Source: Anaerolineae bacterium
GTDB lineage: Bacteria; Chloroflexota; Anaerolineae; Fen-1058
Reading direction: 5' to 3'
Length of the DNA: 64,000 bases
Assembly: GCA_035283185.1 (NCBI GenBank)
Contig: DATEUJ010000144.1
Location: 17,185-81,184, forward strand
In this document: piece after piece, positions 20,562-58,732 of the stretch
Position numbering within the stretch: position 1 is the first letter of the stretch
How the letters are laid out: every line of letters begins with the position of its first letter
Made by a program: the position numbers and the translations under genes
Notes under the pieces: model-generated
What the model was told of the DNA's origin: nothing
Databases searched by the model: none
The model's input: the letters and a program-made list of their open reading frames with translations, nothing else

Positions 20562-20657
20562 ACCGTCACCACTCCGATCAAAGTTTACCATTAATGGGCC
20601 GGGCCGGGCCGGGCGTGTGCTGCCCGACCCGACCCTCACACTGATCGGGTCGCGCCT

Positions 20658-23911: not shown

Positions 23912-23955
23912 GGAACTCGGTGTTAATCGCGTCTATGGGAGGAGAAAGGCGGCAT

Positions 23956-28374: not shown

Positions 28375-28573
28375 CCGCCCCGTCCACGACGTAAGACGTT
28401 GGCAGCCGCTCGCGTCAATAGAGTGGTTGACGACGGGCGGCCTTCTTCTCCTCTGTGGACAGCCCCGGAGACTCCCAGCTCCGGGGCTTCCACGCTCCGA
28501 TGCAAACGCCGCCTCAGCGAGGTGTTTGATGGCTGTGCCAATCCTGACGCACATGCGAGACGAGGTGTAGACC

Positions 28574-43409: not shown

Positions 43410-44282
43410 TTACTGGTTGAGCGACCAGTCGTAGCGGAGGAACAGGACTTTGGGGCGGCTGCGTAACACGAACTCACGGCAGCCTTCATCGTCGAGGTAA
43501 TCGGCGATGTATTCCAACAGCGGTGTCTTGTCGCCCATGCCCAGGGGACGCCCGCCGAAGTCCGGCGCATACCAGCGAAAGATCTGTGACAACCGTATTT
43601 CACCGGCACTCCGGTTAACTTCGACGCCGCCATTATTGATGAAAGCGCGCGCTGCCAAATCGAGTTGCGCGTCGATGCGCTCGGCATCGTACACGCCGAT
43701 CGGCGGACACGATCGCGCCGCGCACACCAGCGCGAAGTGGATGCGTGGATCGAGCCGTTCCAGGCTGTAGGCCAGGCGCGGATCGCGCGGCCCGAAGTGC
43801 GGGCCGGGTATCGCCGGGTGTCCCCGGTTGCCGCGCAGAATGCCGTATTCGATGTCGAACGAGCAGTACCGCCGCCCGCCGATGTCGTAGGCCGCCCGCC
43901 AGAAGAAGCCTGGCGCCTCGTTGACCGAGCGCCGCACGCCCAAGCGGATCACGGCATCGACGATCAGCGCATTGTACAGGTTGATCCAGAAGGCCAGTCG
44001 CTCCTCTCGGCGAGAAAGCATCGCCGGATCGAAGCTTCTCAGGCGAGCAGCACACTGCCGGTACTCGGCATAAACCGGGCTGGAGCGAAGCCGGGCATAA
44101 TCCACACGGCCATGCTCCACATCGAACCCTTCAGCCTTCGGCGCATTGATGATCCGTCGCAGGTCGGCTGCAACCGGTTCAGACGCCGCCGCGTCCGGTG
44201 GCTCCAGGTCGCGATTGAGAGCGAAATCAGGCGGGACGCCGTAACGCAGCAGAATGAGACGGTGAATCAGGCGCATATACAA
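43410..44282 (-). CDS. DUF547 domain protein
   Basis: FWINLYNALIVDAV and HFALVCAARSCPPI are DUF547 hallmarks as I recall them. Confidence 0.65.
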   Translation of the reverse strand: MYMRLIHRLILLRYGVPPDFALNRDLEPPDAAASEPVAADLRRIINAPKAEGFDVEHGRVDYARLRSSPVYAEYRQCAARLRSFDPAMLSRREERLAFWINLYNALIVDAVIRLGVRRSVNEAPGFFWRAAYDIGGRRYCSFDIEYGILRGNRGHPAIPGPHFGPRDPRLAYSLERLDPRIHFALVCAARSCPPIGVYDAERIDAQLDLAARAFINNGGVEVNRSAGEIRLSQIFRWYAPDFGGRPLGMGDKTPLLEYIADYLDDEGCREFVLRSRPKVLFLRYDWSLNQ

Positions 44283-44357
44283 GAGACGCTCTTCGGCATG
44301 GATTCCTTACCCGCCGGGTAAGACCGCGCCGCTTCATCGCGTCTGTATGGCAAGACT

Positions 44358-45293
44358 ATGCCCCTGTCCAAGATCGTCGCGCTCGCGCGGCTGGCACGCC
44401 CGCACTTCCTGATCGGCACCAGTATCGCGTACCTCGTCGGTGCGCTGATGGCCCGGCGCGAAACCGGCACGTGGAACTGGACGGCGTTTGGCATCGGCCT
44501 GCTCGTCGTCTGGTCTGCCCAACTGGCCGCGCAGTTTTTCAACGAGTATTACGACCAGCCAACCGATCGGGCCACTCACCATCGCACTCCGTTCAACGGC
44601 GGCAGCGGCATGTTGATAGGTGGGAGAATGAAGCCCGAAGCCGCGCGATGGGCCGGGCGCGCGATGCTATTGCTTTCGACGGCGCTCTTTGTCGGCTCCA
44701 GCATATTGCCGTCGTTCAGTGTGGTGACGGCGATCATCTTCGGACTAGCGCTGATCGGCGCAGTCGGCTATTCAGCTCCGCCGTTATCGCTGGTCAACCG
44801 TGGCATGGGAGAGTCAGGCACTGCCATCATCGGCGCGCTGCTTGTGCCGCTGTTCGGCTACAACTTGCAGACCGGACAGGTCAGCTTGAAGTTACTTCTC
44901 ACCTGTCTGCCGTTCGCTGCGCTGATCTTCGCCAACATGCTCAACGTGGCCTTCCCAGACTACGACGCCGATCGCGTAACCGGCAAGCGCACGCTGGTGG
45001 TGATTCTCGGCCCGGATCGCGCGGCCCGGGTGTACGGTCTGCTGCTCATCGTAGGCTACGTCGCGCCGTGGCTTACGCTAGGCTGGGGATTGCCGCTCAT
45101 CGTGTTGCTGGCCGAGGCCGCGACGCTGCCGCTGGGGCTGCTCAGCCTCCGCGAAGTGCGGCGCGGCGGTTATCGGACGCCGGAGCGCTTCTGGCGAAAT
45201 ACACGGCTTGGTGTCAGCGCGGTCATGGCAGTAGGTGTGGCGGAAGCGATCGGTTTCTTGATCGCCGGTAGCGCTGCCCCAGCGGGTATATGA
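44358..45293 (+). CDS. UbiA-family prenyltransferase
   Basis: About 8-9 TM segments. NEYYDQPTDR and FPDYDADRVTGKRT are Asp-rich motifs. Confidence 0.75.
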   Translation: MPLSKIVALARLARPHFLIGTSIAYLVGALMARRETGTWNWTAFGIGLLVVWSAQLAAQFFNEYYDQPTDRATHHRTPFNGGSGMLIGGRMKPEAARWAGRAMLLLSTALFVGSSILPSFSVVTAIIFGLALIGAVGYSAPPLSLVNRGMGESGTAIIGALLVPLFGYNLQTGQVSLKLLLTCLPFAALIFANMLNVAFPDYDADRVTGKRTLVVILGPDRAARVYGLLLIVGYVAPWLTLGWGLPLIVLLAEAATLPLGLLSLREVRRGGYRTPERFWRNTRLGVSAVMAVGVAEAIGFLIAGSAAPAGI

Positions 45294-45311: not shown

Positions 45312-46385
45312 ATGCGAAGGCTCTTTCTTCTGTCAATAGCTGTTCTCACCGCGTGCGCACCGGCGACGCCTGCGCCGGCTACATCGATGCCGCGCGTCAC
45401 GGATGCGGAGACGCCTCTGCCTCCCGCATCCCTCGCGCCCAACGATTCCATTGCGCCGGCTGACCAACCCTCTGTTGCTCCCACTACTCCGCCGGTAAAG
45501 AAGAACGTCCGCCTGCCGGACACGAACGAATACTACTTCTCCCAGTTGCTCGCCTTCGATGGCATCCCGCCCGTGTACGATCCGAAGTTCATGGCGGCGA
45601 ATGAAGCGCCGCTGATCGACGACGAACTCGTCATCGGCATCACGCTTGACGGCCAGGCCAAAGCCTATCCCGTCACCGTCCTGAGCTATCGCGAGATGGT
45701 CGACGACGAGCTGGCCGGCATTCCTATCCTCGTCACCTGGTGACCGCTGTGCTACACCGGTCTCGTGCACGACCGGAGGATTGATGGAACGCCCCATACG
45801 TTCGGGAACGCGGGCGCGCTGTTCATGAACGCAATGACGTGGTACGACCACGAGACGCGATCGATCTGGTCGCAGCCGTGGGGGCGGGCGATCCAGGGGC
45901 CGCTCAAGGGCGTCGAGCTATTCCTGCTGCCGTCACAGGTCACCACCTGGGCGAACTGGAAGAACGAGTACCCCGAAACCCTGGTCATGGTCAACGACGC
46001 CGAGTTGTTTGGGCTGCGTCAGGGGTTCAGTCCGAATTTCGTCATCGGCCTCCTGCTGGATGGACGTGCGAAGGCGTACAGATACGCCGACGTGACCGCT
46101 GCCGGTGTCGTGAATGACACCCTGGGCGACGTCCCGATCGTCGTGTGGGCCGCCGATGAGAACTTCCAGGCTTACATCCGGCAGGCCGATGGGCGCACGC
46201 TGACATTCAACGCCGAGGGTGATAGACTGATCGACGTCGAGACAGGCTCGACTTGGGATGTCGGGCGAGGGCTGGCGACGGCGGGATCTCTGCGAGGGCA
46301 GGCGCTTCAACCGGTGCCTGGGTCGACCGCCTACGACTGGGCCTGGCTCGATTTCTATCCCGATTCGGAGTTCTATGCCCCATAA
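45312..46385 (+). CDS. DUF3179-family lipoprotein with in-frame TGA (putative Sec144) replacing the first Cys of the CPLC motif
   Basis: Lipobox VLTACAP. ...GIPILVTW-TGA(45741..45743)-PLCYTGLVHDRRIDG... continues in the same frame. The Cys paralog at 57488..58732 reads ...GVPLTVTFCPLCNTAIAFERTVDG... and aligns on both sides of the TGA. Confidence 0.75.
45757..45776 (+). promoter_or_regulatory. candidate SECIS hairpin CCGGTC-TCGTGCAC-GACCGG
   Basis: Perfect 6-bp stem starting 13 nt after TGA 45741..45743. Confidence 0.45.
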
Positions 46386-46414
46386 CGTGGCCTGCCTTCA
46401 TTCCTGCGCGTTCA

Positions 46415-46501
46415 GTAGATCACGATTTCGTAGTGACGACTTCAGTCGTCCCAGCAAAGAGGCGACTAAAGTCGCTACTACGAGTCAAAGCCGTGATCTA
46501 C
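46415..46501. other. 87-nt multi-stem structured intergenic element (possible ncRNA or REP/MITE-like element)
   Basis: P1 is GTAGATCACG/CGTGATCTAC (10 bp). P2 is TCGTAGT/ACTACGA (7 bp). P3 is the hairpin GACGAC-ttca-GTCGTC. P4 is the hairpin GCGAC-taaa-GTCGC. All stems are perfect. Confidence 0.5.
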
Positions 46502-46572
46502 TGAGATTCGTGAAGATTCGCGTCTTTCGCGGATAAAGATAGGCACGATCACCGGCGACGCCCGAGGTGGTG

Positions 46573-47274
46573 ATGATGGATCCCGAACTGCTCGCGCGCT
46601 ACAATTACGACGAGTTTGTCACTGTCAAATTTGAGCCGTGGCTCAACTTCGAGGCCAGCCCGCCGCTCGGCCATCCGGCGCCCGACTTTCCACTGTGGCG
46701 CCTGGATGGTAGCGAGACGCCCTTTAGCGAAGTCTGGTCGCACCACACATATACCATCGTCGAGTTCGGCAGTTTCACCTGACCATACTGTGGGATGGCG
46801 GCGCCATCCATGAACGCGATCGCCGAACGTCACAAGGAGCGCGGCGTCGGTTCGATCTTTCTCTACACACATGAGGCGCATCCAGGCGAGTATTACCCGC
46901 ACCACACGTCGATGGAACAGAAACTGCGGCACGCCCGCGACCTGCGCGACAAACTCGGCGTGACGCGCCCGATCCTGGTCGATGCACTCGACGGCGCATG
47001 CCACCGCGCTTATGGATCGATGCCGAATATGAGTTGGATTCTCACTCGATCGGGCGTGCCGATTTACAAATCGGACTGGACGGACGCGCGAAGTGTCGAG
47101 AACGCGATCGATTACTTTCTGGATGTGAACGAGCGGCGGCGTTCCGGTGAACGGCAGGCCCCATTTCGCGTCGAACGCCTCGATTTCCGAACGCAAGACC
47201 GTGAAGCCTTCTACAAGGGCCTGGAGCGCAACGGTCCGAAGGCCGTGCGGGAGTATCGAGAAGCGTTCGGCTAG
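46573..47274 (+). CDS. iodothyronine-deiodinase-like thioredoxin-fold protein with in-frame TGA (putative Sec70)
   Basis: ...YTIVEFGSFT-TGA(46780..46782)-PYCGMAAP...IFLYTHEAHPGE. The deiodinase family signature is FGSxT(U/C)Pxx ... Y(I/V)xEAHP. Confidence 0.72.
46793..46809 (+). promoter_or_regulatory. candidate SECIS hairpin GGATGGC-GGC-GCCATCC
   Basis: Perfect 7-bp stem (or 6 bp with a 5-nt G-rich loop), starting 10 nt after TGA 46780..46782. Confidence 0.5.
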
Positions 47275-47427
47275 GCCCTGTCGATTTCCTGCGAACTGTG
47301 CTATCCTTAGCGCTTATCCGAAAACGCAGACGGGCCGCTTCGCGCCATGCCCGTTCAGAGCAGCACATGGGGATGCGCGGCTACGAGGTTTTCGGATAGG
47401 CTCTTAATCCCGATCCAGGCCCCGCAG

Positions 47428-49797
47428 ATGCTCCGTTTCCGCAATCTCCGAACCAAACTCGTCCTGGCCTTCCTCGTCACCGTGCTCGTGCCGCTGATCG
47501 GCACCGGGCTTTACGGCAACTGGACGACCAGCCGCACGTTGCAGGCGCAGGCGCTCGACGCCGCCCGCGCCGACTTGCGATTGCGCGTCGAGCAGATCGG
47601 AGGCTATCTGGCCGGTGTGCGCGAAGACCTGCTCTTCCTCAGCCGCCTCGATTCGCTGGCCACACTGCTCGCCGCCGATCAACCCGCTCCCCCTCTCCTG
47701 GTCGACCTGCAGGCCGACTTCGTCGCCTTCGCCGCTACGCATCCCGGCGCCTTCCAGACTCGATACATCGACGCTAGCGGCATGGAAATCGTGCGCGTCG
47801 ATTCCACGCCGAACGGCATCGAGGTCGTCGCCGCCAACCGTCTGCAAAACAAAGCCGACCGCTACTACTTCGCAGCGGCGATGGCGTTGCCTGCAGGTGG
47901 CGTGCATGTCTCGCCCGTCGACCTGAACCGCGAATTCGGCGTGATCCAGGTTCCGCACACGCCCACCATCCGCTACGCCACGCCCGTCTTTCATCCCGAT
48001 GGCTCGCGCGCCGGTCTGGTGATCCTGAACCTGTACGCAGAACCGTTCCTGCGTTTCGCCCGTTCGGCTGCGGGCGGCGACGCCTTTCTCGTGCTGGTGG
48101 ACGAATCGGGCCACTACCTGGCACACCCCGACCGGTCGCGCGAGTGGGGTGGCCCCAACGACCTGAACACCGGTGCGGGCGCGTTCGTCGATTACCCGCA
48201 CGTCTGGCCGGAGATCGCCCGCGAGTCATCCGGCGTCTATTCGCCAGCGCCCGACAACTGGTTGAGCGCACTGATCGAGGACGTGTTGCCGATCAGCCTG
48301 GTGGGCGGGGATGATCAGACCGGCAACAGAGTGTTGGTCTACGACGCGGTGCAACTTGATCCGGAGCGTGGTCCGCGCTGGAGGTTGCTCTATGACGAGC
48401 CACGTGTCAATCTGTTCGCCTCGGTGTCCGCCTTTCGCATCACAGCGATCACCATTCTCGCCGCCGCCGCCCTCGCCGCGCTACTGATGGCCATCGGCCT
48501 GGCGCGCAGCCTGACTGCGCCCATTCTCGCGCTCACCGAAGACGTGCGGCGCTTTGGGCGAACGAAGTTGCTTCGCCGCCTGGCGGATAGCCCGCCAGGC
48601 ACGGCCCGCGTGCGCGACGAGATCGACGAACTCGAGGCGACCTTCAACGACATGTCGGCGGCGCTCGAGCAACACCTCGAACGACTGTCACTGCTCAATC
48701 GGGCCGGCCATCACATCGCCGCGCGCCTGGAGCGACCGACCGTTCTGGAAGCGGCGGCGCGCGCGGCGGAGACACTCTTTCCAGCCGAATACAGCGTGAT
48801 CTGGTTCACAACGGAACGCGGCGACACGATCACTCACACGCATGGCCATGCGCCATGGGAGGCTTACCGCGCCGATCCCGGCCTGAATGCGCTCTTCGCC
48901 GCCGCGATTGCCGACGGCGAGTGGCGCACGACGCGCCTGCCCGATGCTCAAACGCCGTCCGGATTCCTGTGCTGCGTGCCGCTGTGTGTGAGCAGGCGGC
49001 CTGGCCTGATCGAACTTTATGGTTCGAGTCCGGCGCTGGCCGATCCGGCGACCGGCAACCTGCTCGCCGCGCTCAGCGTGCAAATCTCCATCGCGCTGGA
49101 GAATGCCGAGTTGGTCGAGCGGCTGGCCGAGCGCCGTGCCGAACTGCAGGCACTGGTCGAGCAACTCATTACCGCGCAGGAAGAAGAACGGCGCGTCGTC
49201 GCCTACGATATTCACGACGGCTTGATCCAGATGCTCGTCGGCGCGCGCCTGCAGCTCAGCAACTTCCAGGCCGATCGCGCCCGCGACCCGAATCGGGCCG
49301 AGGTGGCGCTGCGGAAAGGCCTCGACGAACTGGCTGCCGCCATTGCCGAAGCCCGCCGCGTCATCGAGGGCCTGCGCCCGGCCGCGCTGGACGATCTCGG
49401 TCTCGTCACCACGCTTCGGCAATACGCTGAGGAAACCGCTTCGGCGTGCGGCTGCCGGCTGGAATTCGCCGCCATCCCGCCCAACCTGCGCGTGCCCCCG
49501 CCGGTTGAGACGACGGCGTTTCGCATCGCACAGGAAGCCATCACCAACGCGCGCAAGTACGCCGGCGCGCAGCGGCTGCAGGTCGCGCTCACGCTCGGCG
49601 ACGGCGCGCTCGTCGTCGAAGTTCGGGACGACGGCGGCGGCTTCGATCCGAGCGCCGTCGCTGGAGGGCGCGAGGTGGGCCTGACCGGCATGCGCGAGCG
49701 AGCGCGTTTGCTCGGCGGAGAATGCACCATCGAAAGCGCGCCGGGAACGGGCACTGTCGTGCGCGCCACACTGCCACTACTGGCCACTGACCACTGA
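47428..49797 (+). CDS. sensor histidine kinase (extracytoplasmic sensor, HAMP, GAF-like, HisKA_3 + HATPase; NarX/LiaS class)
   Basis: ATG 47428. N-terminal TM, a large periplasmic domain and a second TM. RVVAYDIHDGLIQ (HisKA_3 H-box). C-terminal NARKYA...GGFD...GLTGMRERA. Confidence 0.85.
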   Translation: MLRFRNLRTKLVLAFLVTVLVPLIGTGLYGNWTTSRTLQAQALDAARADLRLRVEQIGGYLAGVREDLLFLSRLDSLATLLAADQPAPPLLVDLQADFVAFAATHPGAFQTRYIDASGMEIVRVDSTPNGIEVVAANRLQNKADRYYFAAAMALPAGGVHVSPVDLNREFGVIQVPHTPTIRYATPVFHPDGSRAGLVILNLYAEPFLRFARSAAGGDAFLVLVDESGHYLAHPDRSREWGGPNDLNTGAGAFVDYPHVWPEIARESSGVYSPAPDNWLSALIEDVLPISLVGGDDQTGNRVLVYDAVQLDPERGPRWRLLYDEPRVNLFASVSAFRITAITILAAAALAALLMAIGLARSLTAPILALTEDVRRFGRTKLLRRLADSPPGTARVRDEIDELEATFNDMSAALEQHLERLSLLNRAGHHIAARLERPTVLEAAARAAETLFPAEYSVIWFTTERGDTITHTHGHAPWEAYRADPGLNALFAAAIADGEWRTTRLPDAQTPSGFLCCVPLCVSRRPGLIELYGSSPALADPATGNLLAALSVQISIALENAELVERLAERRAELQALVEQLITAQEEERRVVAYDIHDGLIQMLVGARLQLSNFQADRARDPNRAEVALRKGLDELAAAIAEARRVIEGLRPAALDDLGLVTTLRQYAEETASACGCRLEFAAIPPNLRVPPPVETTAFRIAQEAITNARKYAGAQRLQVALTLGDGALVVEVRDDGGGFDPSAVAGGREVGLTGMRERARLLGGECTIESAPGTGTVVRATLPLLATDH

Positions 49798-49826
49798 CCA
49801 CTGTTCACTGTTCACTGTTCACTGCC
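49785..49826. repeat. six in-phase tandem heptamers CACTGNN spanning the kinase stop codon up to the regulator start codon
   Basis: cactgac x2, cactgtt x3 and cactgcc x1 at 49785-49826. ATG of the response regulator is at 49827. Confidence 0.9.
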
Positions 49827-50480
49827 ATGACTGAACCGATCACCGTCCTCATCGCCGACGATCACGGCGTGGTGCGCGAAGGACTGCGCGCCATGCTGGA
49901 ACGCGAAGGGTTGCGCGTAGTGGGCGAAGCCCGCACCGGGCGTGAAGCCATTGCCCTCGCTGGCTCCCTCGCGCCCAAAGTCGTCCTCCTCGACATCCGC
50001 ATGCCCGACCTCGACGGCCTACAAGCCCTCGCCGCCATCAAAGCCGCTCGCCCTGAGACCAGCGTCATCATGCTCACCTCGCATGCCAACCCCGGCTACT
50101 TGGCCCGCGCTGTAGCGCACGGGGCCGCCGGATTCCTCTCAAAGGAAATTGACCCCGACCGCATCCCTGCCGCCGTGCGCGCCGCCGCCACCGGCGACCA
50201 TCTCCTCGACCCGGCGCTCCTGCGTGCTGCACTGGCCTCGGCCGCTGTCGAAGCGCCGCTCACCCCGGAATCCGACATCCCACCCGCCGACCTCCTCACC
50301 GAGGCCGAAACGCGCGTCCTCCGCCTGCTGGCCGAGGGGCTGGACAATGAGACGATCGCCGCCTCACTCAGCCTGAGCGTCAACACAGTCAAAACCCATG
50401 TCCGGCATATTTTCGAGAAACTGAACGTTTCCGACCGGACGCAGGCGGCGCTATGGGCGGTGCGGCATGGGATAAAGTAA
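49827..50480 (+). CDS. NarL/FixJ-family response regulator
   Basis: VLIADDHGVVREGL...VVLLDIRMPDLDG. C-terminal LTEAETRVLRLLAEGLDNETIAASLSLSVNTVKTHV. Confidence 0.9.
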   Translation: MTEPITVLIADDHGVVREGLRAMLEREGLRVVGEARTGREAIALAGSLAPKVVLLDIRMPDLDGLQALAAIKAARPETSVIMLTSHANPGYLARAVAHGAAGFLSKEIDPDRIPAAVRAAATGDHLLDPALLRAALASAAVEAPLTPESDIPPADLLTEAETRVLRLLAEGLDNETIAASLSLSVNTVKTHVRHIFEKLNVSDRTQAALWAVRHGIK

Positions 50481-50594
50481 ATCATCCTCTGGTATGACCC
50501 TTTTCACCCCTCAGCATGATGTCCGGCGCGGGTGCTTGCTGCAATATACAGTTGCAGGTTAACCACCCATATCCATTCTCCGGAGCCCCGCGCC

Positions 50595-51788
50595 ATGAGT
50601 CTGAGACACGCCCTGTTACTTCTGGTCACCCCATTGGCAGTCGGCGCTCTTGTCTTGGCGGCCTGCGCCTCATCCACTCCCGCCGGGCCGGCACCGGCCT
50701 TCACGCTGCCCGAAGCGCCGGCCATCAGAATCACGCCGCTACCTCCGCTGCCGGCGGAGCTGCCACCCGAAGCGGCCTTCCCTTCTGTGGCGGACCCGGC
50801 GTGGGAAAAGCTACCGGCTGCCCAAGTCGCGTTGGGCAAATACCTCTTCTTCGACGATGCCCTCTCCGGCGACCAGAAGTTGAACTGCGCAACCTGCCAC
50901 CAGCCGGACCGGGCCTGGATCGATGGCCTGCCTCTCTCCGTCGGCTACCCCGGCAGCCTCTACTTTCGTAACACCCCGACCCTGCTGAACGTCGGTGACA
51001 AGCCGCTCCTCTACTGGGACGGGCGTCTCGATGGGAATGACCTGCCGACCGTGATACGCGACCACATCGCTGAGGCCCACTTTATGAACGCCGACGGTCT
51101 GCTGGTCGTCGAGCGGCTGAATCAGAAGCCGCAATACGCGGAACTCTTTAGGGCAGCCTACGGCGGCGGGCCGAGTTATGGGCGCATGCTTAACGCCGTT
51201 GCCGCCTACGTTGGATCGCTGTACTCCCCGCCCAGCGCGTACGACCGCTACCGAGCCGGTGAGGCAGAAGCGCTCTCTGCCCAGGCGCAAGCAGGCCTGG
51301 CCCTCTTCGAAGGGAAAGCTCGCTGCGCCACCTGCCACAGCGGCACGCTTTTCAGCGACGGCCAATACCACAATCTGGGACTGCCTCAAAATCCGGATAT
51401 CTTCGACGAACCGCTGCGGCACATCACCTTCCGTCGATTCTTCCGGACGCTGGGCGTGCCTGACTATTCCAAACTGGAGGTAGACGTTGGGCGGTATGCT
51501 CTGACCCAGGATAATTCGGACAGCGGCTACTTCCTCACACCCGCGCTGCGGGAGGTCGGCCGGACCGCGCCATACATGCACAACGGCATTTTCGTCACGT
51601 TGGAAGAGGTCGTCGCCTTCTACAACGCCGGAGGCGGAGAGAGTTCGGAACTGTCGCCACTCAATCTCACACCGGCCGAGCAGGCGGCGCTGGTAGCCTT
51701 CCTTGAAAACCTGAGCGGTGAGCTGGTGTCGGTCGAACCGCCCGAAGCGCCTGCCTATCAGCTCACGATTCTGGGAGGCGACCAATGA
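50595..51788 (+). CDS. di-haem cytochrome c peroxidase (CCP/MauG family), lipoprotein
   Basis: Lipobox LVLAACAS. Haem motifs CATCH and CATCHSG. PYMHNG. Confidence 0.85.
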   Translation: MSLRHALLLLVTPLAVGALVLAACASSTPAGPAPAFTLPEAPAIRITPLPPLPAELPPEAAFPSVADPAWEKLPAAQVALGKYLFFDDALSGDQKLNCATCHQPDRAWIDGLPLSVGYPGSLYFRNTPTLLNVGDKPLLYWDGRLDGNDLPTVIRDHIAEAHFMNADGLLVVERLNQKPQYAELFRAAYGGGPSYGRMLNAVAAYVGSLYSPPSAYDRYRAGEAEALSAQAQAGLALFEGKARCATCHSGTLFSDGQYHNLGLPQNPDIFDEPLRHITFRRFFRTLGVPDYSKLEVDVGRYALTQDNSDSGYFLTPALREVGRTAPYMHNGIFVTLEEVVAFYNAGGGESSELSPLNLTPAEQAALVAFLENLSGELVSVEPPEAPAYQLTILGGDQ

Positions 51789-52918
51789 CCCGCCGGAATC
51801 TAATTGTGCTCGGACTGGTCGCCTTCGTCATTGTAGCGGGCATTGTCTACATGGTCGTGCAGCAGAGTCGGCTGCCAGTTGAGCTCACGGGCGGGCTGGA
51901 ACCGTTGCCTGACGTTCCCATCCCGCCTGACAACCCGATGAGCGAGGCCAGGATCGAGTTGGGTCGATACCTCTTCTTCGATCAGCGCATGTCCGGCGAC
52001 GGCAGCACCTCGTGCGCTATCTGCCACGTACCGGAGCTCGGCTGGGGGAGTGGCTCGGCGATTTCACCAGGCTATCCTGGCACATCGCACTGGCGCAACT
52101 CGCAGACTGTGATCAATAGTGCCTATCTGCCCAAGTTGTTTTGGGCCGGCGAATCTCTCAGCCTGGAGAAGCAGGCAGAATCCGCCTGGACCGGAAACTT
52201 GGCTGGCAATCTGGACCCGGCGATGGCCGAGGAACGGATGCGACAGATACCGGAGTACGTCGGCGTGTTCGAGGAAGTCTTCGGCGCTCCGCCGAATTGG
52301 GGTGACGCGCTGAAGGCGGTTGCGGCCTTTGAGCGCACGCTCGTCACGCAGAAAGTTCCTTTCGACGCCTATGCCCAAGGCGACCGGGGCGCCCTCTCGG
52401 CGGAGGCATTGCGCGGACTGGCGCTGTTCCAGGGCAAGGCGAACTGCATTGCGTGCCACAACGGCCCCTTGTTCACCGACAACAGCTTCCATAATCTCGG
52501 CGTTCCCCGCAACCCGCTATACGACTCGAACATCAATGTCCAGGTTGCGCTGCGTTACCAGCATCTCTCGCGGGGCGTGCCCGAAGAAGCGTATCAGGCC
52601 GCAGACCGCGACCTGGGACTGTATTACACGACCAAGCGCGAAGAGGACATGGGCGAGTTTCGCACGCCACCGTTGCGTTACGTGTGCTACACCGCCCCCT
52701 ACATGCACAACGGCGTGCTGAGCACCGTGGAGGAGGTCGTCGCCTTCTACAGTGCCGGCGGGGGCGATGACCCCGGCAAAGACCCGCTGATGCAGCCCCT
52801 CGATCTCACTGCGCCTGAGCAAGCCGACCTGGTCGCCTTCTTGCACAGCCTGTGCGGCGACGAAATCATCATCGAAGCCCCGGAACTGCCGCCCTATGCC
52901 GTGATCAGTAATCGGTAG
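51785..52918 (+). CDS. di-haem cytochrome c peroxidase (CCP/MauG family), second copy
   Basis: N-terminal TM anchor. CAICH and CIACHNG. PYMHNG. The start overlaps the previous stop. Confidence 0.85.
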   Translation: MTRRNLIVLGLVAFVIVAGIVYMVVQQSRLPVELTGGLEPLPDVPIPPDNPMSEARIELGRYLFFDQRMSGDGSTSCAICHVPELGWGSGSAISPGYPGTSHWRNSQTVINSAYLPKLFWAGESLSLEKQAESAWTGNLAGNLDPAMAEERMRQIPEYVGVFEEVFGAPPNWGDALKAVAAFERTLVTQKVPFDAYAQGDRGALSAEALRGLALFQGKANCIACHNGPLFTDNSFHNLGVPRNPLYDSNINVQVALRYQHLSRGVPEEAYQAADRDLGLYYTTKREEDMGEFRTPPLRYVCYTAPYMHNGVLSTVEEVVAFYSAGGGDDPGKDPLMQPLDLTAPEQADLVAFLHSLCGDEIIIEAPELPPYAVISNR

Positions 52919-52988
52919 CCAGTCATCAGTGCCACTGATCACGATTCATGGCTTACTGATCACTGACCACCGGCTACTGACCACTCAC
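52901..52988. repeat. cluster of (T/C)ACTGA(T/C)CAC motifs and their inverted copy upstream of aioB
   Basis: gtgatcagta at 52901-10 (inverted). cactgatcac at 52933-42. tactgatcactgaccac at 52954-70. tactgaccactcac at 52975-88. Related to the CACTGAC heptamers at 49785. Confidence 0.6.
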
Positions 52989-53002
52989 TTCGGAGGTTCT
53001 CG

Positions 53003-53557
53003 ATGACCGATCAGACCTGCGATCTGAACGCAGCCCTCACCCGCCGGCACTTTCTGTTCATGAGCGGCGCGGCGCTCGTCACACTGGCGATACCCAGGTT
53101 CCTGTGGGGCGTGCCCGGGGCCGAAGCGATGCGCCTGCAATTGGCCGAGTACCCGCGCCAGAAGGTCGGGAAACTGAGCGCACTGAAGGTCGGCCGGCCG
53201 GTTCCGTTCCAGTATCCCTTCGAGCATCCCAACTGTGCCAACTTCATCTTCAAGCTGGGTGTTCCGGCGGGCGGCGGCATCGGCCCGCAGAAGGACGTGG
53301 TCGCCTTTAACAGCCTGTGCCCGCATCAGGGCGGCCCGCTGGCTGGGCGGCTCAACGCGCAGCATCAAGTCCTCGGCCCGTGCCCGCTGCATCTGAGCAC
53401 GTTCGACCTCACCCGGCACGGCATGGTCGTCAGCGGCCACGCGACCGAAGGCCTGCCCCAGATCGTGCTGGAACTAAGCGGCGACGACATCTATGCCGTC
53501 GGGGCGATGGGCCTGGTGTATGGCTTTCACAGTAATCTGGTTGATCCAAAGGCGTAA
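53003..53557 (+). CDS. aioB: arsenite oxidase small (Rieske) subunit with Tat signal
   Basis: TRRHFLFMSGAAL (twin-Arg). Rieske CPHQGG ... CPLHLS. Directly precedes the Mo-pterin subunit. Confidence 0.8.
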   Translation: MTDQTCDLNAALTRRHFLFMSGAALVTLAIPRFLWGVPGAEAMRLQLAEYPRQKVGKLSALKVGRPVPFQYPFEHPNCANFIFKLGVPAGGGIGPQKDVVAFNSLCPHQGGPLAGRLNAQHQVLGPCPLHLSTFDLTRHGMVVSGHATEGLPQIVLELSGDDIYAVGAMGLVYGFHSNLVDPKA

Positions 53558-53605
53558 TTGGTAAGTGGTAATTACCAATTACGTATTCCCAACTGGGAGT
53601 GCGCT

Positions 53606-56248
53606 ATGACCAACTACACCCCTCAAGACAAAGTTCCCCTCCCGCCTTCGGGCGCAAAGGTGTACACGACGGCGTGTGATTACTGCATCGTGGCCTGCGG
53701 TTACAAGACTTACGTTTGGCCTGAAGGCCAAGAGGGCGGCCCCAAGGCAAGTGAAAACGCGCTCGGCCTCGACTTCCCCACCGGCGTTCTCAGCGGCTGG
53801 ATCAGCCCTAACCAGCACAACCTCGTCAGCGTGGACGGCAAGCTGCATCACATCGTCGTCGTGCCGGACTTTCAAACCACAGTCGTCAACAGGGGCGGCA
53901 ACCACTCGATCCGGGGAGGAACATTGGCGCTCAAGTGCTATAACCCGAACGCGCCAACGCGCGACCGACTGCTGTACCCGCAGGCTCGCGTCAACGGCAA
54001 ACTGACTCGCGTGGACTGGGACACGGCCCTCGACGTGATGGCCGCCGTGAGCAAGCACGTGCTAAAGAACTACGGCGAGTCGGGCTGGGCCATGAAGACC
54101 TACTCCTACGAGTTCTTTGAGAACACCTACGCTATCTCCAAACTGGCCTTCGGCGCGATCGGCACTCCGGCCTTTGCCGTACACGACAAACCCAGCATGG
54201 GCTCGGACACCGGCGGGGTGGATGACGCCGGCATCATCACCTTCAGCGCCTCGTATCAGGATTGGGCCGACGCCGACGTGATCTACATCTCAGGCACCGA
54301 CCCCTTCGAGACTAAGACCATCGTCTTCACCTCGTGGATGATGGGCAAGCCGAAACTGATTTTCGCCCTGCCGCGCCGCACCACGGGTGTGGCTTACGCG
54401 GAAGCCAACGACGGCCTCTTCCTGCAAGTCATCCCTGGCACCGACACTCTCCTACACCTTGCCATCAACCGCATCATCCTGGAGAACGGCTGGGAAGACG
54501 CCGAGTTCGCGGAGGACTGGATCGCCAGCACGTGGGAAATTGACGCCGGCATGGGCCGCGGCCCGCGCAACACGCCCTGGCAGTGGCGCACCACCTGGAG
54601 CCAATTTGGGACCGACTTCGCCGGATACAAGGACTGGCTGCTGAACTACGATCTCGCCCGACTGGAAAACGCTGCCCGTGTCACCGGCGTCTCGGCAGAA
54701 AAGATCGTTCAGGCCACAGAAATGCTCACCGGCGCGGGCGGTCCGCGCCCCAAGGCCTCGTTCGCCTTCGAGAAGGGCAATTACTGGAGCAACAACTACC
54801 TCAACACGGCGTCGTTCGCGGCGATGGGCCTACTGTGCGGCGCGGGCAACCGGCCCGGTCGTGTCATCAGCCGCTTGGGCGGCCATCAGCGCGGCTGGAT
54901 GGGCGCGGCCGGCTATCCGATGGACAAGTCGCCGGAGAAATTGCCGGGCCGCCGCAAAGTGGAACTCGACCTCGACCGTTGGGTGGCAGCGGGCAACGTC
55001 CGTTTCGCCTGGGTAATCGGCACGACGTGGACGGCGGCAATGGCCGCCAGCCAGGAACTGGCCGACTCCTTCCGTAAGCTCACGGTCGAGAATCCGAACC
55101 AAATCAAGTCCGCCAACAAGCAGGCGATCGTGGACGCACTGATCCGGCGCGTCGACAGCCGCGGCATGGTGCTGGTGGACTCCGACATATATCCGGTGGA
55201 ACCCATCAACACCGAGTTCGCCGACATCGTCCTGCCCGCCGCCGCGTGGGGCGAGCACGACGCGACCCGCGCCAACGGCGAGCGCCGCCTGCGCCTCTAC
55301 AGCAAGTTCTACGATCCACCGGGTGAGGCCAAGCCCGATTGGTGGGCCATCAGCCGCTTCGCGCAGAAGATGGGCTTCAGTGGCTGGGACTGGGAAACGG
55401 ACAACGACGTGTTCGAGGAGGCCGCGCGCTTCAGCCGGGGCGGCGTGCTGGATTACTACGTGCTGGCGTGGCACGCGAAACAGATCGGCCAGAAGGGCCA
55501 CGAGGTTCTGCGCGAACTCGGCACGCAGGGCATCCAGACGCCCATTCGCTGGGTGAACGGCCAGATGGTCGGCACCGTCCGCTTGCACGACTCGACGCTC
55601 GAGCCCGGCACGCCGGAAGGTCCCACCGTCCACGCCAAATGGCTGACGCACTTCAGTTCGCACTCCGGTAAGGCGCTGTTGCTCAAAAGCCCGTGGGAGC
55701 TGTTCAGCGACTTCTACGAACGCGTCACGCCCGACCCGGCCAGCGGCGAATTCTGGCTGACGAACGGGCGCATCAACGAACTCTGGCAGTCAGGGTTTGA
55801 CGACCACCGCAAGCCGTATATGCATAACCGCTGGCCGGATACGTGGGTGGAGATTCACCCGACGGACGCGGCAAAGTACGGCATCGAGAGCGGCGACGAA
55901 GTGCGTCTGTTCAGCGACGATATTCTGATCCAGACCGGCGGCTGGATTCGGGTGAAGGGCTACAAGTTTACCGATTTGGTGAAGGAGGGATTGATCACCA
56001 CCGGCAAAGGCGATGTGCGCGCCGTCGCCATCGTCTCGGAAGACGTGCGGCCTGGCGTGCTGTTCACCAATTTCCTGCATCCGGCCAGCCCGGCCAACTC
56101 GCTCGTCCACCGCGTGCCCGACCCTTTCGCCAACGTCCACCGATTTAAACTGGGCAAGGCGCAGATCGAGAAGATCGGCGAGTCGCCGTACAAGAAATCT
56201 CTGGAGGAGATGACCTTCAAGCCGCGCACGATCACCTTCACGGGTTGA
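53606..56248 (+). CDS. aioA: arsenite oxidase large (molybdopterin, 3Fe-4S) subunit
   Basis: ATG 53606 with GGGAG RBS. TTACDYCIVACGYKTYVWPEGQEGGP aligns by eye with the AioA N-terminus (C-x2-C-x3-C, ...KWPELQEGG). About 880 aa. Confidence 0.8.
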   Translation: MTNYTPQDKVPLPPSGAKVYTTACDYCIVACGYKTYVWPEGQEGGPKASENALGLDFPTGVLSGWISPNQHNLVSVDGKLHHIVVVPDFQTTVVNRGGNHSIRGGTLALKCYNPNAPTRDRLLYPQARVNGKLTRVDWDTALDVMAAVSKHVLKNYGESGWAMKTYSYEFFENTYAISKLAFGAIGTPAFAVHDKPSMGSDTGGVDDAGIITFSASYQDWADADVIYISGTDPFETKTIVFTSWMMGKPKLIFALPRRTTGVAYAEANDGLFLQVIPGTDTLLHLAINRIILENGWEDAEFAEDWIASTWEIDAGMGRGPRNTPWQWRTTWSQFGTDFAGYKDWLLNYDLARLENAARVTGVSAEKIVQATEMLTGAGGPRPKASFAFEKGNYWSNNYLNTASFAAMGLLCGAGNRPGRVISRLGGHQRGWMGAAGYPMDKSPEKLPGRRKVELDLDRWVAAGNVRFAWVIGTTWTAAMAASQELADSFRKLTVENPNQIKSANKQAIVDALIRRVDSRGMVLVDSDIYPVEPINTEFADIVLPAAAWGEHDATRANGERRLRLYSKFYDPPGEAKPDWWAISRFAQKMGFSGWDWETDNDVFEEAARFSRGGVLDYYVLAWHAKQIGQKGHEVLRELGTQGIQTPIRWVNGQMVGTVRLHDSTLEPGTPEGPTVHAKWLTHFSSHSGKALLLKSPWELFSDFYERVTPDPASGEFWLTNGRINELWQSGFDDHRKPYMHNRWPDTWVEIHPTDAAKYGIESGDEVRLFSDDILIQTGGWIRVKGYKFTDLVKEGLITTGKGDVRAVAIVSEDVRPGVLFTNFLHPASPANSLVHRVPDPFANVHRFKLGKAQIEKIGESPYKKSLEEMTFKPRTITFTG

Positions 56249-56271
56249 GTCGTCACCCCTATGGATAGACC

Positions 56272-56572
56272 ATGAAACGGCTTGCCGACTTGCTCGAAGC
56301 CTCTGCCGCACTCCACCGCCATCTCTGCCCGCGTCAGGTGCTCGGCGTGCGTATCGGGCTGGCGGGCGCAGCCGCATTACAACTCGACGTCTCACGCAAG
56401 GACAAGCGGCTGCTGGTCATTAGAGATCATCAACGAGCGCGAGGTCCGGCGCGATGGCGCGACCCTGTGCCGCGCTTGCGCGGGCGAGGGCTATTATGAC
56501 CTGTTGGCGAGTTCGTTCCCGTGCCTGTCGTTGCGAGAACCGAACTGGCCCGAGAGGCTGTCAGTCGGGTGA
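56272..56572 (+). pseudogene. FmdE-domain protein remnant (internal deletion plus frameshift)
   Basis: The N-terminus LHRHLCPRQVLGVRIGLAGA...DKRLLVI is FmdE-like. The C-terminal Zn-ribbon-like part EIINEREVRRDGATLCRACAGEGYY is in a different frame. The central domain is missing. Confidence 0.45.
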
Positions 56573-56611
56573 AAAGACTTCCGAAGTCTCTGGGATTTCG
56601 GAAGTCTTTTC
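56571..56611 (+). terminator. perfect 15-bp hairpin GAAAAGACTTCCGAA / TTCGGAAGTCTTTTC
   Basis: Read directly, with an 11-nt loop. The 3' arm ends in a T-rich run. Lies at the end of the aio block. Confidence 0.5.
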
Positions 56612-56660
56612 GTCAGGGTAAGATTTGACCCGGAACGCGCGTCTACAAGATAGCGGGCCA

Positions 56661-56954
56661 ATGCTCCAGATATATCCTGTCGGGGCACACAACCCGCACA
56701 AGAGAAGGACTCACACTGTGCGTCCGATCTGGCAGATCCTCACCCGCACAACGCATTCTCCAAACAGTGTGCTGACCTGTGAGGAATGCTTTGCGGCGCT
56801 GGAGTATCTGGCCGAGTTGATGGATGCAGATGTTGATCCGAAAGACCTGTGGCAGACCGCCCAACGCCATCTGGCGCGCTGTCCCGACTGCCGGGAGCAT
56901 CACGCAAAGCGTATCCGCGAACTGGAGTCGCGGCTGGCCGGAGGTCGAGGCTGA
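56661..56954 (+). CDS. orphan ZAS-type (zf-HC2) anti-sigma-like protein
   Basis: RHLARCPDCREHH matches H-x3-C-x2-C. An additional CEEC lies upstream. The stop overlaps the start of the next gene (TGATG). Confidence 0.55.
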   Translation: MLQIYPVGAHNPHKRRTHTVRPIWQILTRTTHSPNSVLTCEECFAALEYLAELMDADVDPKDLWQTAQRHLARCPDCREHHAKRIRELESRLAGGRG

Positions 56955-57484
56955 TGCTTCGCGTCGGTCAACCGGCACCCGACTTGCGCCTGCCAGGTCT
57001 GGACGGATCACCGATCGCACTGTCGGATTATCGAGGCCGACCGGTCGTGCTCGTCTTTCTGCGCCATCTCGGCTGACTGCCCTGCCGCGAGCACGCGATG
57101 CAGTTGCATCGCCGACGAGACGCAGTGCTGATGCTGAATGGCGAGGTATTGCTGATCACCTTTTCCAGCGCGGAGCAGGCGCGTCGCTGGCGGGACGAGA
57201 CTGGGATCGACTTTCCGTTGTTGCTCGATGCGAATCGGGCTGTCTATCGCGCTTATGGTCTACGGTCCTCGATCTGGCGCGTGTGGCAGCCTAAGGTGCT
57301 GGCGTATTACGCGCGAGCCTTGTTGCAAGGGCAGCGCTGGCGCGGCATCCGCGACGATCCGCACCAGTTGGGCGGCGATTTCGTTGTCGATGCCGCCGGG
57401 ATGTTGCGCTTCGCGCACCGGAGCGAAGACCCGACTGATCGCCCGGCAGTTGATTCGCTCTTGTCGGTACTTCGACAGATGTGA
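56954..57484 (+). CDS. peroxiredoxin-like 2 / AhpC-TSA_2 family protein with in-frame TGA (putative Sec41)
   Basis: MLRVGQPAPDLRL...GRPVVLVFLRHLG-TGA(57074..57076)-LPCREHAMQL... in the same frame. The family motif is F(L/V)RxxGCxxCR. Confidence 0.72.
57095..57112 (+). promoter_or_regulatory. candidate SECIS hairpin GCGATG-CAGTTG-CATCGC
   Basis: The palindrome gcgatgcagttgcatcgc starts 18 nt after TGA 57074..57076. Confidence 0.45.
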
Positions 57485-57487
57485 GGT

Positions 57488-58732
57488 GTGGATATGGGAC
57501 AAGTCGCAGTCAATCTACCTCGAATCACCTGGCTGATGATCTTCGGCGTGCTACTCACGGCCTGCGCGGGAGCAGCCACTGGCCCAACGCCGGCCGAGCC
57601 CCCGCTGCCCGCCCTGGCCCCGACCCAGACTTCCCAATCGACGAAAGCCCCTACGATGACTCCCTCGCCCTCTCTGGACGAGCCGCCGCCTGCGGGCGCG
57701 CAGTTCGAGTTCACCACCGACTTCAGCAAGCACGCGGTCTCGTACCGCGAAATCCTCTCGGGCGGACCGCCCAAGGATGGCATTCCCGCAATCGACGATC
57801 CCAAGTTCATCAGCGTCGAAGAGGCCAAACAGTGGCTGTTACCGGTCGAGCCGGTCATTCTCGTTCAAGTTGGCGACGACGCCCGCGCCTATCCACTGCA
57901 GATCCTGACCTGGCACGAGATCGTCAACGACGCCGTCGACGGTGTGCCGCTCACGGTGACGTTCTGTCCGTTGTGCAACACCGCCATCGCCTTCGAGCGG
58001 ACGGTCGACGGGCGCGTGCTCGACTTCGGCACGACCGGCCGGCTGCGCTACAGCAACCTGATCATGTATGACCGCCAGACCGAGACGTGGTGGCAGCAGG
58101 CCACCGGCGAGGCGATCGCCGGTGAGCTAACGGGGACGCGGCTGAAGTTCTATCCGGCCTCCATCATCGCCTGGGCCGATTTCAATACCCACCATCCCGA
58201 TGGCAAAGTGCTCTCGCGCGATACGGGCTTTGGTCGGGATTACGGGCGCAATCCGTATACTGGCTACGACGACGTGAACAGCTCGCCGTTCCTGTATCGC
58301 GGGCCGGAGACACCCGGCGCGCTGCCGGCTGTGGCGCGCGTGCTGACAATCGCCTTGAACGGCGAGGCAGTGGCTTACCCTTACGACGTGCTGCAGGACG
58401 TGCGCATGGTCAACGACACGGTCGGCGGGACAGAGGTCGTCGTGGTGTGGAAGGGAGGCACGGCTTCCGCGCTCGACACCAGCCGCATCGCCGACGGGCG
58501 TGATGTCGGCGCGGCGAGTGCGTACTCGCGTGTTCTCGACGGCGAGACACTGACTTTCTCCCTCGACGGCGGGCGAATCGTCGATGACCAGACCGGCAGC
58601 GAGTGGAATGTGCTCGGGCAGGCGGTCGGCGGAAAACTGGCGGGCAAATCGCTGACGCCTGTCGTCGCCATCAACCACTTCTGGTTCTCGTGGGCAGCCT
58701 TCAAGCCGGAGACGCGCATCTACCAACCGTAG
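57488..58732 (+). CDS. DUF3179-family lipoprotein (Cys form, CPLC)
   Basis: Lipobox LLTACAG. DGIPAIDDPKF, YPLQILTWHEIVND, VTFCPLCNTAI and MYDRQTETWWQQ. Confidence 0.8.
   Translation: MDMGQVAVNLPRITWLMIFGVLLTACAGAATGPTPAEPPLPALAPTQTSQSTKAPTMTPSPSLDEPPPAGAQFEFTTDFSKHAVSYREILSGGPPKDGIPAIDDPKFISVEEAKQWLLPVEPVILVQVGDDARAYPLQILTWHEIVNDAVDGVPLTVTFCPLCNTAIAFERTVDGRVLDFGTTGRLRYSNLIMYDRQTETWWQQATGEAIAGELTGTRLKFYPASIIAWADFNTHHPDGKVLSRDTGFGRDYGRNPYTGYDDVNSSPFLYRGPETPGALPAVARVLTIALNGEAVAYPYDVLQDVRMVNDTVGGTEVVVVWKGGTASALDTSRIADGRDVGAASAYSRVLDGETLTFSLDGGRIVDDQTGSEWNVLGQAVGGKLAGKSLTPVVAINHFWFSWAAFKPETRIYQP

Follow-up and report, generated by a model that had tools for sequence, protein, structure and literature searches.

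Two genes for proteins of the DUF3179 family lie in a 64,000-nucleotide stretch of an Anaerolineae bacterium (Chloroflexota; GenBank assembly GCA_035283185.1, contig DATEUJ010000144.1, positions 17,185 to 81,184; hereafter the window), and each adjoins a gene for a selenoprotein with a thioredoxin fold. What would bring these proteins together? An earlier reading of the same DNA, made from its letters alone (the sequence-only reading), had taken the two juxtapositions as a hint of a functional module, one possibility being that a cytoplasmic, selenocysteine (Sec)-dependent reductase works with an exported CxxC/UxxC lipoprotein. Our analysis leads to an interpretation to which we give a probability of about 0.6: DUF3179 is a redox client or enzyme at the outer face of the membrane, served by a pathway that runs from CcdA to a ResA-like thioredoxin, within the regulon of an extracytoplasmic function (ECF) sigma factor and a zinc-binding anti-sigma (ZAS) protein, and the leaderless selenoproteins are cytoplasmic members of this regulon.

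DUF3179 is a large family of Bacteria and Archaea, with more than 7,700 homologous clusters among the matches listed, and some members already carry the NCBI name 'DUF3179 domain-containing (seleno)protein'. Reviews credit the DUF3179 selenoprotein family to a 2007 study of Olavius symbionts (PMC1976440). DUF3179 (UxxC/T), deiodinase-like (UxxC) and Prx-like/SelL-related (UxxC, UxxU) proteins are all catalogued as prokaryotic selenoprotein families (PMC9312934, PMC13188914), so only their pairing could be new; the literature that we searched gives no function, partner or regulon for DUF3179.

The two gene pairs

At locus 1 (45312..47274), the gene for a DUF3179 lipoprotein with an in-frame TGA (Sec-type; 45312..46385; PF11376 E=1.1e-65, 222.4 bits against a cut-off of 27; lipobox LTAC) is followed by that for a leaderless, deiodinase-like thioredoxin-fold selenoprotein (46573..47274; Redoxin 1.2e-8, T4_deiodinase 31.3 bits, AhpC-TSA). 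At locus 2 (56954..58732), the gene for a leaderless SelL-related (Prx-like2) selenoprotein (56954..57484; AhpC-TSA 2.5e-22; AhpC-TSA_2/PF13911 4.5e-14, 53.2 bits against a cut-off of 27) precedes that for a DUF3179 lipoprotein whose motif, F-C-PLC, contains no TGA (Cys-type; 57488..58732; PF11376 E=3.9e-110, 368.3 bits against a cut-off of 27; lipobox LTAC). All four reading frames are present on the + strand at the coordinates that the sequence-only reading gave them, three with an in-frame TGA, and the two DUF3179 paralogs share 31% identity. Membership in the SelL-related family is backed by NCBIfam NF040769 (166.3 bits against a cut-off of 120), and UxxU variants of this protein occur in the surveyed loci L044 and L058. 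The deiodinase-like protein passes PF00837 narrowly (cut-off 27), its orthologs score 25-31 bits with similar Redoxin/AhpC-TSA scores, and its 53.9 bits against NCBIfam NF038285 are below the cut-off of 250. 'Deiodinase-like thioredoxin fold' therefore seems a fair label, with membership in the iodothyronine deiodinase family being borderline.

Gene neighbourhoods of DUF3179

We surveyed the loci of the best 80 of 543 DUF3179 relatives, drawn from one genome per GTDB species and mostly from Chloroflexota, with Halobacteriales, Nitrososphaerota, Woesearchaeota, Actinomycetota, Latescibacterota, Spirochaetota and Gracilibacteria also represented. Iterated profiles made in this analysis were run against six-frame translations of the loci in which TGA did not end a frame, and the flanks of the loci served as an internal control. 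Thioredoxin-fold domains, present in 20 of the 80 loci, were concentrated within 1 kb of DUF3179, where 22 were found compared to 7 at 1-6 kb (11.5-fold density, p=6e-10). This held for Cys-type thioredoxins (15 near vs 5 far, p=5e-7) and for Sec-type thioredoxin-fold genes (7 near vs 2 far, p=5e-4). Inspection of gaps brought out CcdA (11 near vs 1 far, p=2.5e-5), which is encoded within 1.5 kb of DUF3179 in 11/80 loci, and DsbA-like proteins, in 5/80 loci; Pfam confirmed DsbD_TM (L061) and Thioredoxin_4/DSBA. A thiol-redox partner of some kind was present in 27/80 loci.

A neutral Pfam scan of the called open reading frames (ORFs) placed Thioredoxin, Thioredoxin_4/DSBA, AhpC-TSA/Redoxin, DsbD_TM and ECF sigma among the commonest families near DUF3179, and these families were missing from the top list of the far zone. 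After dereplication, 7 of 22 DUF3179 clades (at least 55% identity) kept a thioredoxin or DsbA-like neighbour. The gene order CcdA, TlpA-like, DUF3179 is found in L061, L067 and L058. L061, which holds an ortholog of the locus-2 DUF3179 with 71% identity, reads ZAS, CcdA, membrane-anchored thioredoxin, DUF3179, DsbA-like. L058 encodes, all on one strand, an ECF sigma factor, a ZAS protein, a DUF3179-thioredoxin fusion, CcdA, a further ORF, a SelL-related protein (U-x-x-U) and a Pyr_redox_2 disulfide reductase, the start of the last gene overlapping the end of the SelL-related gene. Cytochrome-maturation or cox genes were not recurrent around DUF3179 in the 80 loci.

The neighbourhood survey that the sequence-only reading had called for thus found enrichment, and together with the neutral Pfam control, two fusion architectures and a reciprocal survey (below) it supports the view of DUF3179 and thioredoxin-fold proteins as a non-random module. 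The partner families that had been named, PF00837 and PF13911, do recur, but most often the partner is a CxxC thioredoxin of the ResA/TlpA type, either exported or fused, accompanied by CcdA. The arsenite oxidase block between the two loci had been drawn into the picture as well; only near-identical relatives share this flanking, and arsenite oxidase, cytochrome c peroxidase and UbiA were not conserved around DUF3179 in the fetched loci.

Could the window juxtapositions be incidental, a product of synteny kept by descent or of a general tendency of selenoprotein genes to cluster in Chloroflexota that use Sec? Sec-Sec pairs are indeed restricted to related Chloroflexota lineages, the identical locus-2 arrangement occurs only in the near-identical L002-L004, and every second DUF3179 locus has no partner at all. 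However, the distance-resolved enrichment with its flank and neutral Pfam controls, fusion architectures in two domains of life, the reciprocal survey and a shared promoter motif already disfavour this explanation, and we regard it as very improbable.

Fused and separate partners on the two sides of the membrane

DUF3179 and thioredoxin are joined in a single chain in two ways. In Chloroflexota, a DUF3179 lipoprotein carries a C-terminal thioredoxin domain with the motif WAGLCPIC (P0079, P0093, P0094, L001, L044, L051 and L058). In Archaea the order is membrane helix, thioredoxin (CPFC), DUF3179; among the matches listed, 104 of 120 clusters carry both domains, at 40-96% identity, and they come from Nitrososphaerales, Woese-, Aenigm-, Micr- and Nanoarchaeota and Euryarchaeota. 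The fused thioredoxin domain found its best structural match in B. subtilis ResA (template modelling (TM) score 0.88-0.93, E ~1e-13) and also superposed on pneumococcal Etrx1/2 (TM 0.84-0.88), CcmG, StoA and DsbF.

Thioredoxin-fold partners fall into two classes with respect to the membrane. Those of class A (14/80 loci, plus 5 with DsbA-like proteins) are membrane-anchored, lipoproteins or fused, and therefore lie on the same side as DUF3179. Those of class B (9 loci and both window cases) are leaderless Sec proteins; in the window, the deiodinase-like frame has about ten codons ahead of its start and then a stop, and the SelL-related protein has no hydrophobic segment before its domain. Lacking a signal peptide, class B partners cannot directly reduce an exported DUF3179. 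Pairing with a leaderless Sec thioredoxin-fold protein was seen in only 2 of 22 DUF3179 clades, both from Chloroflexota. Thus, the proposed couple of a cytoplasmic Sec reductase and an exported lipoprotein could function only by way of a membrane relay such as CcdA. No exported thioredoxin-fold reductant or CcdA gene adjoins either window DUF3179 locus; CcdA is encoded at 19408..20454, with the same promoter motif.

For the reciprocal survey, the deiodinase-like protein was used as the seed to collect 80 metagenomic loci. DUF3179 was present in 26/80 of these loci and in 12/41 of those of at least 5 kb. Where the sequence extended at least 700 bp upstream (57 loci), a co-directional DUF3179 gene stood directly upstream of the deiodinase-like gene in 13. 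In other loci, the deiodinase-like gene is preceded by genes for a ZAS-like protein (19 loci) and an ECF sigma factor (10 loci). A DUF547 gene was divergent to it in 8/80 loci (L085, L117 and six others) and was also found near DUF3179 in two DUF3179-seeded loci, L033 and L047. Thus, of the two locus-1 neighbours that the sequence-only reading had singled out, DUF547 recurs and UbiA was found in none of the fetched loci. DUF547 has a conserved C-x-x-R-S-C-P stretch and its own copy of the ECF-type motif; we found nothing functional in the literature on DUF547.

The frequency of DUF3179 directly upstream of the deiodinase-like gene and in the metagenomic loci would also suit a second arrangement, in which the leaderless selenoproteins are dedicated cytoplasmic donors that feed CcdA and, through it, exported DUF3179, each window pair being a cross-membrane redox couple. 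The excess of Sec thioredoxin-fold genes near DUF3179, the one-strand array of L058 from ECF sigma through SelL-related (U-x-x-U) to Pyr_redox_2, and the apparent translational coupling of locus 2 point the same way. We nonetheless consider it unlikely. About two thirds of the deiodinase-like genes have no DUF3179 nearby, many of them following a ZAS gene, the pairing is confined to the 2 of 22 clades, Pyr_redox_2 is not enriched, and the CcdA operon of the window encodes a normal thioredoxin, so a special donor is not needed. Prx-like2 and deiodinase-type folds, moreover, usually belong to peroxidase- or reductase-like enzymes and not to thioredoxin-type donors. If DUF3179 is instead the client of a CcdA-to-ResA-like pathway, the window selenoproteins would be members of a cytoplasmic thiol/selenol-stress set and not its direct reductants.

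A promoter motif shared by the module genes

Unbiased clustering of flanking ORFs identified ECF sigma factors (11 loci) and a small H-x3-C-x2-C protein (10 loci), to which the window ORF at 56625..56954 belongs, as recurrent neighbours; an ECF sigma or ZAS gene was located within 2.5 kb of DUF3179 in 17/80 loci. A bipartite enrichment upstream of the sigma genes yielded the motif GTAAG-N16-18-CGTCTA, and CGTC in the -10 element is a hallmark of ECF promoters. There are 35 copies in 1.37 Mb compared to ~1.3 expected, 26 of which lie just upstream of, and co-directional with, module genes. Their targets are ZAS (12), DUF3179 (6), thioredoxin-fold (3, including TlpA-DUF3179 in L047 and the deiodinase-like gene in L088), DUF6789-like (2), CcdA (1), DUF547 (1) and Pyr_redox/DedA (1) genes.

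The window has nine copies with at most one mismatch, compared to 1.8 expected. A strict copy, GTAAGA-N16-CGTCTA (56618..56645, +), lies upstream of the locus-2 operon, with the same motif at the same position in L002 and L003. Near locus 1, a one-mismatch copy (GTAAG-N17-CGTCTG; 44318..44345, +) is found 13 nt before a UbiA-family prenyltransferase gene (44358..45293, +; PF01040 E=8e-23), the first gene of a putative locus-1 unit and followed by the Sec-type DUF3179 gene. A divergent one-mismatch copy (CGTCTC; 44283..44310, -) abuts the gene for the DUF547 protein (43410..44282, -; PF04784 E=7e-37); L085 has the same divergent geometry, its DUF547 match lying 1 nt away from a strict motif. 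Another strict copy (21155..21182, -) stands ahead of genes for a DUF6789-like membrane protein (20658..21413, -), the first of its operon, CcdA (19408..20454, -; E=3.2e-53 with a custom profile from Pfam-confirmed DsbD_TM members), a ResA/TlpA-like thioredoxin (18842..19411, -) and a thioredoxin (18481..18915, -), which makes 18481..21182 (-) a probable electron-supply operon.

The candidate regulators are encoded next to each other: an ECF sigma factor at 23174..23911 (+) and, as its partner, a ZAS anti-sigma protein at 23920..24255 (+; HLDNCVDC), with a strict motif copy (23908..23935, +) ahead of the ZAS gene. The remaining copies may be chance matches: strict ones at 21219..21246 (+) and 23187..23214 (-) flank ORFs without a Pfam match (21753-23154), and one-mismatch ones at 24684..24711 (+) and 28391..28418 (+) lie upstream of a Crp-type regulator gene (24971..25723) and a GH15 glycosidase gene (28574..30601), respectively.

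The small ZAS-like protein of locus 2 (56625..56954, +; HLARCPDC) shares the H-x3-C-x2-C zinc/redox motif with 23920..24255. Its RsrA score is 19.7 bits, below the cut-off of 62.5, and no sigma gene is beside it because aioA lies upstream; sigma-ZAS pairs do exist in orthologous loci and in the window at 23174..24255. Its true start is probably downstream of the promoter motif, since relatives annotate a 78-aa product.

The DUF3179 protein

In both window proteins the lipobox LTAC is accompanied by a Pro/Thr/Ala-rich linker, features conserved in homologs, and the archaeal forms examined (L031, L050 and L082) have an N-terminal membrane helix. DUF3179 is accordingly predicted to be a lipoprotein in Chloroflexota and membrane-anchored in these three archaeal loci. 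It is probably a redox protein that acts outside the cytoplasm, and it has one invariant motif, [Sec/Cys]-P-x-Cys, whose first position is Sec in ~29 genes. AlphaFold2 (AF2) modelled the Cys-type protein as two beta-rich lobes (predicted local distance difference test, pLDDT, 86.4; predicted TM score, pTM, 0.88), in which the CxxC comes after a strand in the first lobe. A sequence search of the PDB with the DUF3179 profile gave no match.

About 40 residues are invariant across two DUF3179 subfamilies, and since many of them are polar (E, N, D, R, Y, Q), an active site looks likelier than a simple relay. A possible extension, which we put forward tentatively, is that DUF3179 represents an unrecognised class of extracytoplasmic thiol/selenol enzyme with a two-lobed beta fold that is not related to those of known reductases, the terminal reductase of an oxidised envelope substrate, with a dedicated chain and a redox-sensing ECF sigma/ZAS pair, and distributed from Chloroflexota to DPANN and Nitrososphaerota. 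Its chain would run from NAD(P)H through a flavoprotein or thioredoxin or Sec thioredoxin-fold donor to CcdA and then to a ResA-like thioredoxin.

Foldseek matched the DUF3179 model (window 57695-58729) to Rieske domains only, including that of the arsenite oxidase small subunit. We do not claim kinship with Rieske [2Fe-2S] proteins: the matches are weak (E 0.013-0.1, target TM ~0.5), there is no conserved His pair, and hhalign of DUF3179 against the window AioB Rieske protein gave a probability of 0.1 and no sequence-level support.

The weak resemblance to these cluster-binding domains would nevertheless be in keeping with a third possibility, that DUF3179 is a chaperone or scavenger of a metal or metalloid (e.g. 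Cu, As or Se), and no reductase, with U/CxxC ligands that a TlpA-like thioredoxin would have to keep in the reduced state, in the way that TlpA serves ScoI and CoxB. This would account just as well for the association with TlpA-like thioredoxins and CcdA. In addition, aioBA lies between the two window loci, Sec is a good soft-metal ligand, and several prokaryotic selenoproteins have been implicated in metal/metalloid resistance (PMC13188914). We find it quite unlikely, given that the aio link is confined to near-identical relatives, that the only conserved ligands are two Cys, without a His/Met set, that no metal transporter or resistance genes are among the recurrent neighbours, and that the profile comparison with the window Rieske protein was null.

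DUF3179 paralogs are often adjacent, a Sec-type beside a Cys-type or two Sec-types, as in 14/80 loci (L005, L014, L015, L019, L022, L024-L028, L037, L055, L067 and L081); the window copies are 11 kb apart. The adjacency suggests that paralogs might form a heteromer or a relay between them.

A putative reducing pathway and its known counterparts

In the chain that we infer, electrons would pass from a cytoplasmic thioredoxin-type donor to CcdA, on to an exported ResA/TlpA/Etrx-like thioredoxin and then to DUF3179, which would most likely be the terminal client or enzyme of this membrane-crossing reducing pathway. The U/CxxC of DUF3179 would be oxidised while acting on a substrate and then re-reduced by thioredoxin. 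The parts encoded in the window would be spread over several transcription units with an ECF-type promoter motif in common, namely UbiA with Sec-type DUF3179 and possibly the deiodinase-like gene; ZAS-like with SelL-related and DUF3179; DUF547; and DUF6789-like with CcdA, ResA-like and thioredoxin. The ECF sigma/ZAS pair would control these units, presumably in response to a thiol/selenol-stress signal.

Several points weigh against DUF3179 being such a client. Forty of the 80 DUF3179 loci have none of the surveyed partners, so the link is frequent and not obligatory; the partners of these loci may be encoded elsewhere, as in the window. The survey is dominated by Chloroflexota, with kinship only roughly corrected, and Pyr_redox_2 flavoproteins, which we tried and rejected as a specific partner, were about equally frequent near and far from DUF3179 (5 vs 6). 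The AF2 model of a natural fusion, used as a stand-in for a multimer prediction, had a whole-chain pTM of 0.66 with confident single domains, and it therefore predicts no confident thioredoxin-DUF3179 interface. At locus 1, the copy of the promoter motif deviates at one position, and DUF3179 is parted from the deiodinase-like gene by a strong hairpin. Finally, the data gathered on DUF3179 point to no substrate, and the case for its role is wholly computational, built on sequence and predicted structure.

Pneumococcal ccdA1-etrx1-msrAB2 appears to be the closest known system, with DUF3179 in place of MsrAB2; there, CcdA1-Etrx1-MsrAB2 and CcdA2-Etrx2 constitute an extracellular reducing system (PMC3914529). 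The proposed pathway would share with it a monoderm-type envelope and, in jointly encoded form, the succession of membrane CcdA, surface thioredoxin-fold lipoprotein and surface terminal redox enzyme. Unlike that system, DUF3179 has no sequence or fold relation to MsrA/MsrB, one paralog uses Sec, and the window parts, known from genes alone, lie in separate units joined only by a promoter motif. Neisseria PilB is an extracytoplasmic Trx-MsrA-MsrB fusion reduced by DsbD, in which an N-terminal TlpA-like domain is fused to the enzyme that it regenerates. By analogy, the archaeal membrane-helix-thioredoxin-DUF3179 proteins may be built on the same principle, although their catalytic module is a different one and Chloroflexota also have the form with a C-terminal thioredoxin.

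CcdA-ResA serves cytochrome c maturation in Bacillus, and TlpA-ScoI/CoxB serves copper-site assembly in Bradyrhizobium. The likeness lies in the use of CcdA or DsbD and a ResA/TlpA-type thioredoxin to reduce a CxxC-type client, but the clients of those systems are apocytochrome c or Sco/CuA proteins. The regulatory genes recall SigR-RsrA in that a small soluble H-x3-C-x2-C protein stands beside an ECF sigma factor and the targets encode thiol-redox proteins, and depart from it in that the RsrA score is far below the cut-off, the locus-2 ZAS-like gene lacks an adjacent sigma gene and redox sensing is putative.

If correct, this interpretation would provide a first testable role and functional context for a large selenoprotein-containing family that has been traced to the 2007 study. 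It would extend the short list of clients of extracytoplasmic reducing systems (cytochrome c, Sco/CuA, MsrAB, DsbG/DsbC substrates), suggest redox partners, a promoter and stresses to test for DUF3179, and offer a lead on why bacterial deiodinase-like and SelL-related selenoproteins travel with it.

Selenocysteine codons

Each of the three in-frame TGAs occupies the first position of an xxC motif and has a hairpin resembling a selenocysteine insertion sequence (SECIS) 3' of it, and all three are read as Sec codons. In the locus-1 DUF3179 gene, the TGA at 45741-45743 (+) gives W-U-PLC. Cys occupies this column in full-length homologs (FCPLC or WCSIC), and most database orthologs are ~207-aa fragments that gene callers ended at the same TGA. 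W-U-P[I/L]-C is encoded by ~29 non-identical genes from Anaerolineales, Dehalococcoidia, Promineifilaceae, Ardenticatenaceae and others. A hairpin of at least 6 bp that starts 14-19 nt after the UGA and has GU in its loop was found in 24/29 Sec-type compared to 1/73 Cys-type DUF3179 genes (Fisher p=2e-17). The window hairpin (45757..45776, +; CCGGUC, loop UCGUGCAC, GACCGG) starts 16 nt after the UGA. Between lineages its position moves by one base and its stem changes in a compensatory manner (CCGGUC/GACCGG, GGGCAU/AUGCCC, GGCUAU/AUAGCC, GGCGAU/AUCGCC). Folding energy was marginal as a discriminator of Sec-type and Cys-type genes (p=0.037) because both sets are GC-rich, and folds of single SECIS sequences gave weak z-scores; both approaches were set aside.

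The deiodinase-like gene encodes FGSFT-U-PYC, with its TGA at 46780-46782 (+), and Sec is kept in 80/80 metagenomic orthologs. Its hairpin (46793..46809, +; GGAUGG, loop CGGCG, CCAUCC) starts 13 nt after the UGA and has no GU in the loop; L056 has a compensatory stem, GUCUG/CAGAC. In the SelL-related gene the TGA at 57074-57076 (+) gives G-U-LPC, and the hairpin (57095..57112, +; GCGAUGC, loop AGUU, GCAUCGC) starts 21 nt after the UGA, with covarying stems in L047 (GUGGCGC/GCGCCAC) and in L044 and L058 (GGCAC/GUGCC). No tRNA-Sec was detected in the 64-kb window; selA/selB/selD were not searched for. The SelL-related proteins of L044 (2115-2513) and L058 (9680-10246) have two selenocysteines in a diselenide-type motif, G-U-LH-U.

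Transcription units at the two loci

At locus 2, the ZAS stop overlaps the SelL-related start (TGATG), with GGAGG upstream, and the gap between the SelL-related and DUF3179 genes is 3 nt if the latter starts at GTG 57488 or 9 nt if it starts at ATG 57494, the likely start judging by the GAGGTG just upstream of it. Because its genes overlap or nearly abut, locus 2 is likely co-transcribed; no terminator-like site was found between them. The SelL-related and DUF3179 ORFs are in one frame, parted by a TGA stop and one codon (57482-57494), a layout that recurs in L002; read-through of this TGA would join a thioredoxin fold to DUF3179 in one chain, much as in the archaeal proteins. Downstream of this TGA, no SECIS was seen.

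At locus 1, UbiA and the Sec-type DUF3179 gene are 18 nt apart. Co-transcription of DUF3179 with the deiodinase-like gene is uncertain because the 187-nt gap between them carries a very stable, imperfect hairpin of 105 nt (46407..46511, +; -53.8 kcal/mol, z=-8.4), which is single-copy in the window and may be a terminator, an attenuator or an RNA-stability element. An Rfam scan of the window and of this gap identified tRNAs only and left the hairpin unmatched, and the equivalent gap in L005, L010 and L012 lacks it.

Other features of the window and the surveyed loci

Two genes for CCP_MauG di-haem cytochrome c peroxidases lie immediately 5' of aioB/aioA (window 50532-56248), an arrangement that is kept in L002 behind a histidine kinase and response regulator pair (window 47347-50480). 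In L061, the orthologous kinase and regulator genes instead adjoin ZAS, CcdA, thioredoxin and DUF3179. OsmC-family peroxidase-like genes with a CEDC motif were found 0.9-2 kb from DUF3179 in L007, L011, L064 and L084, and the window has one at 33128-33541; a motif copy in L064 whose -35 element is looser (TAAGA for GTAAG) points toward the OsmC-family gene. Five tRNA genes (Ile-TAT, Phe, Leu-CAG, Arg-TCG and Pro-TGG) are clustered at 63435-63867 on the - strand.

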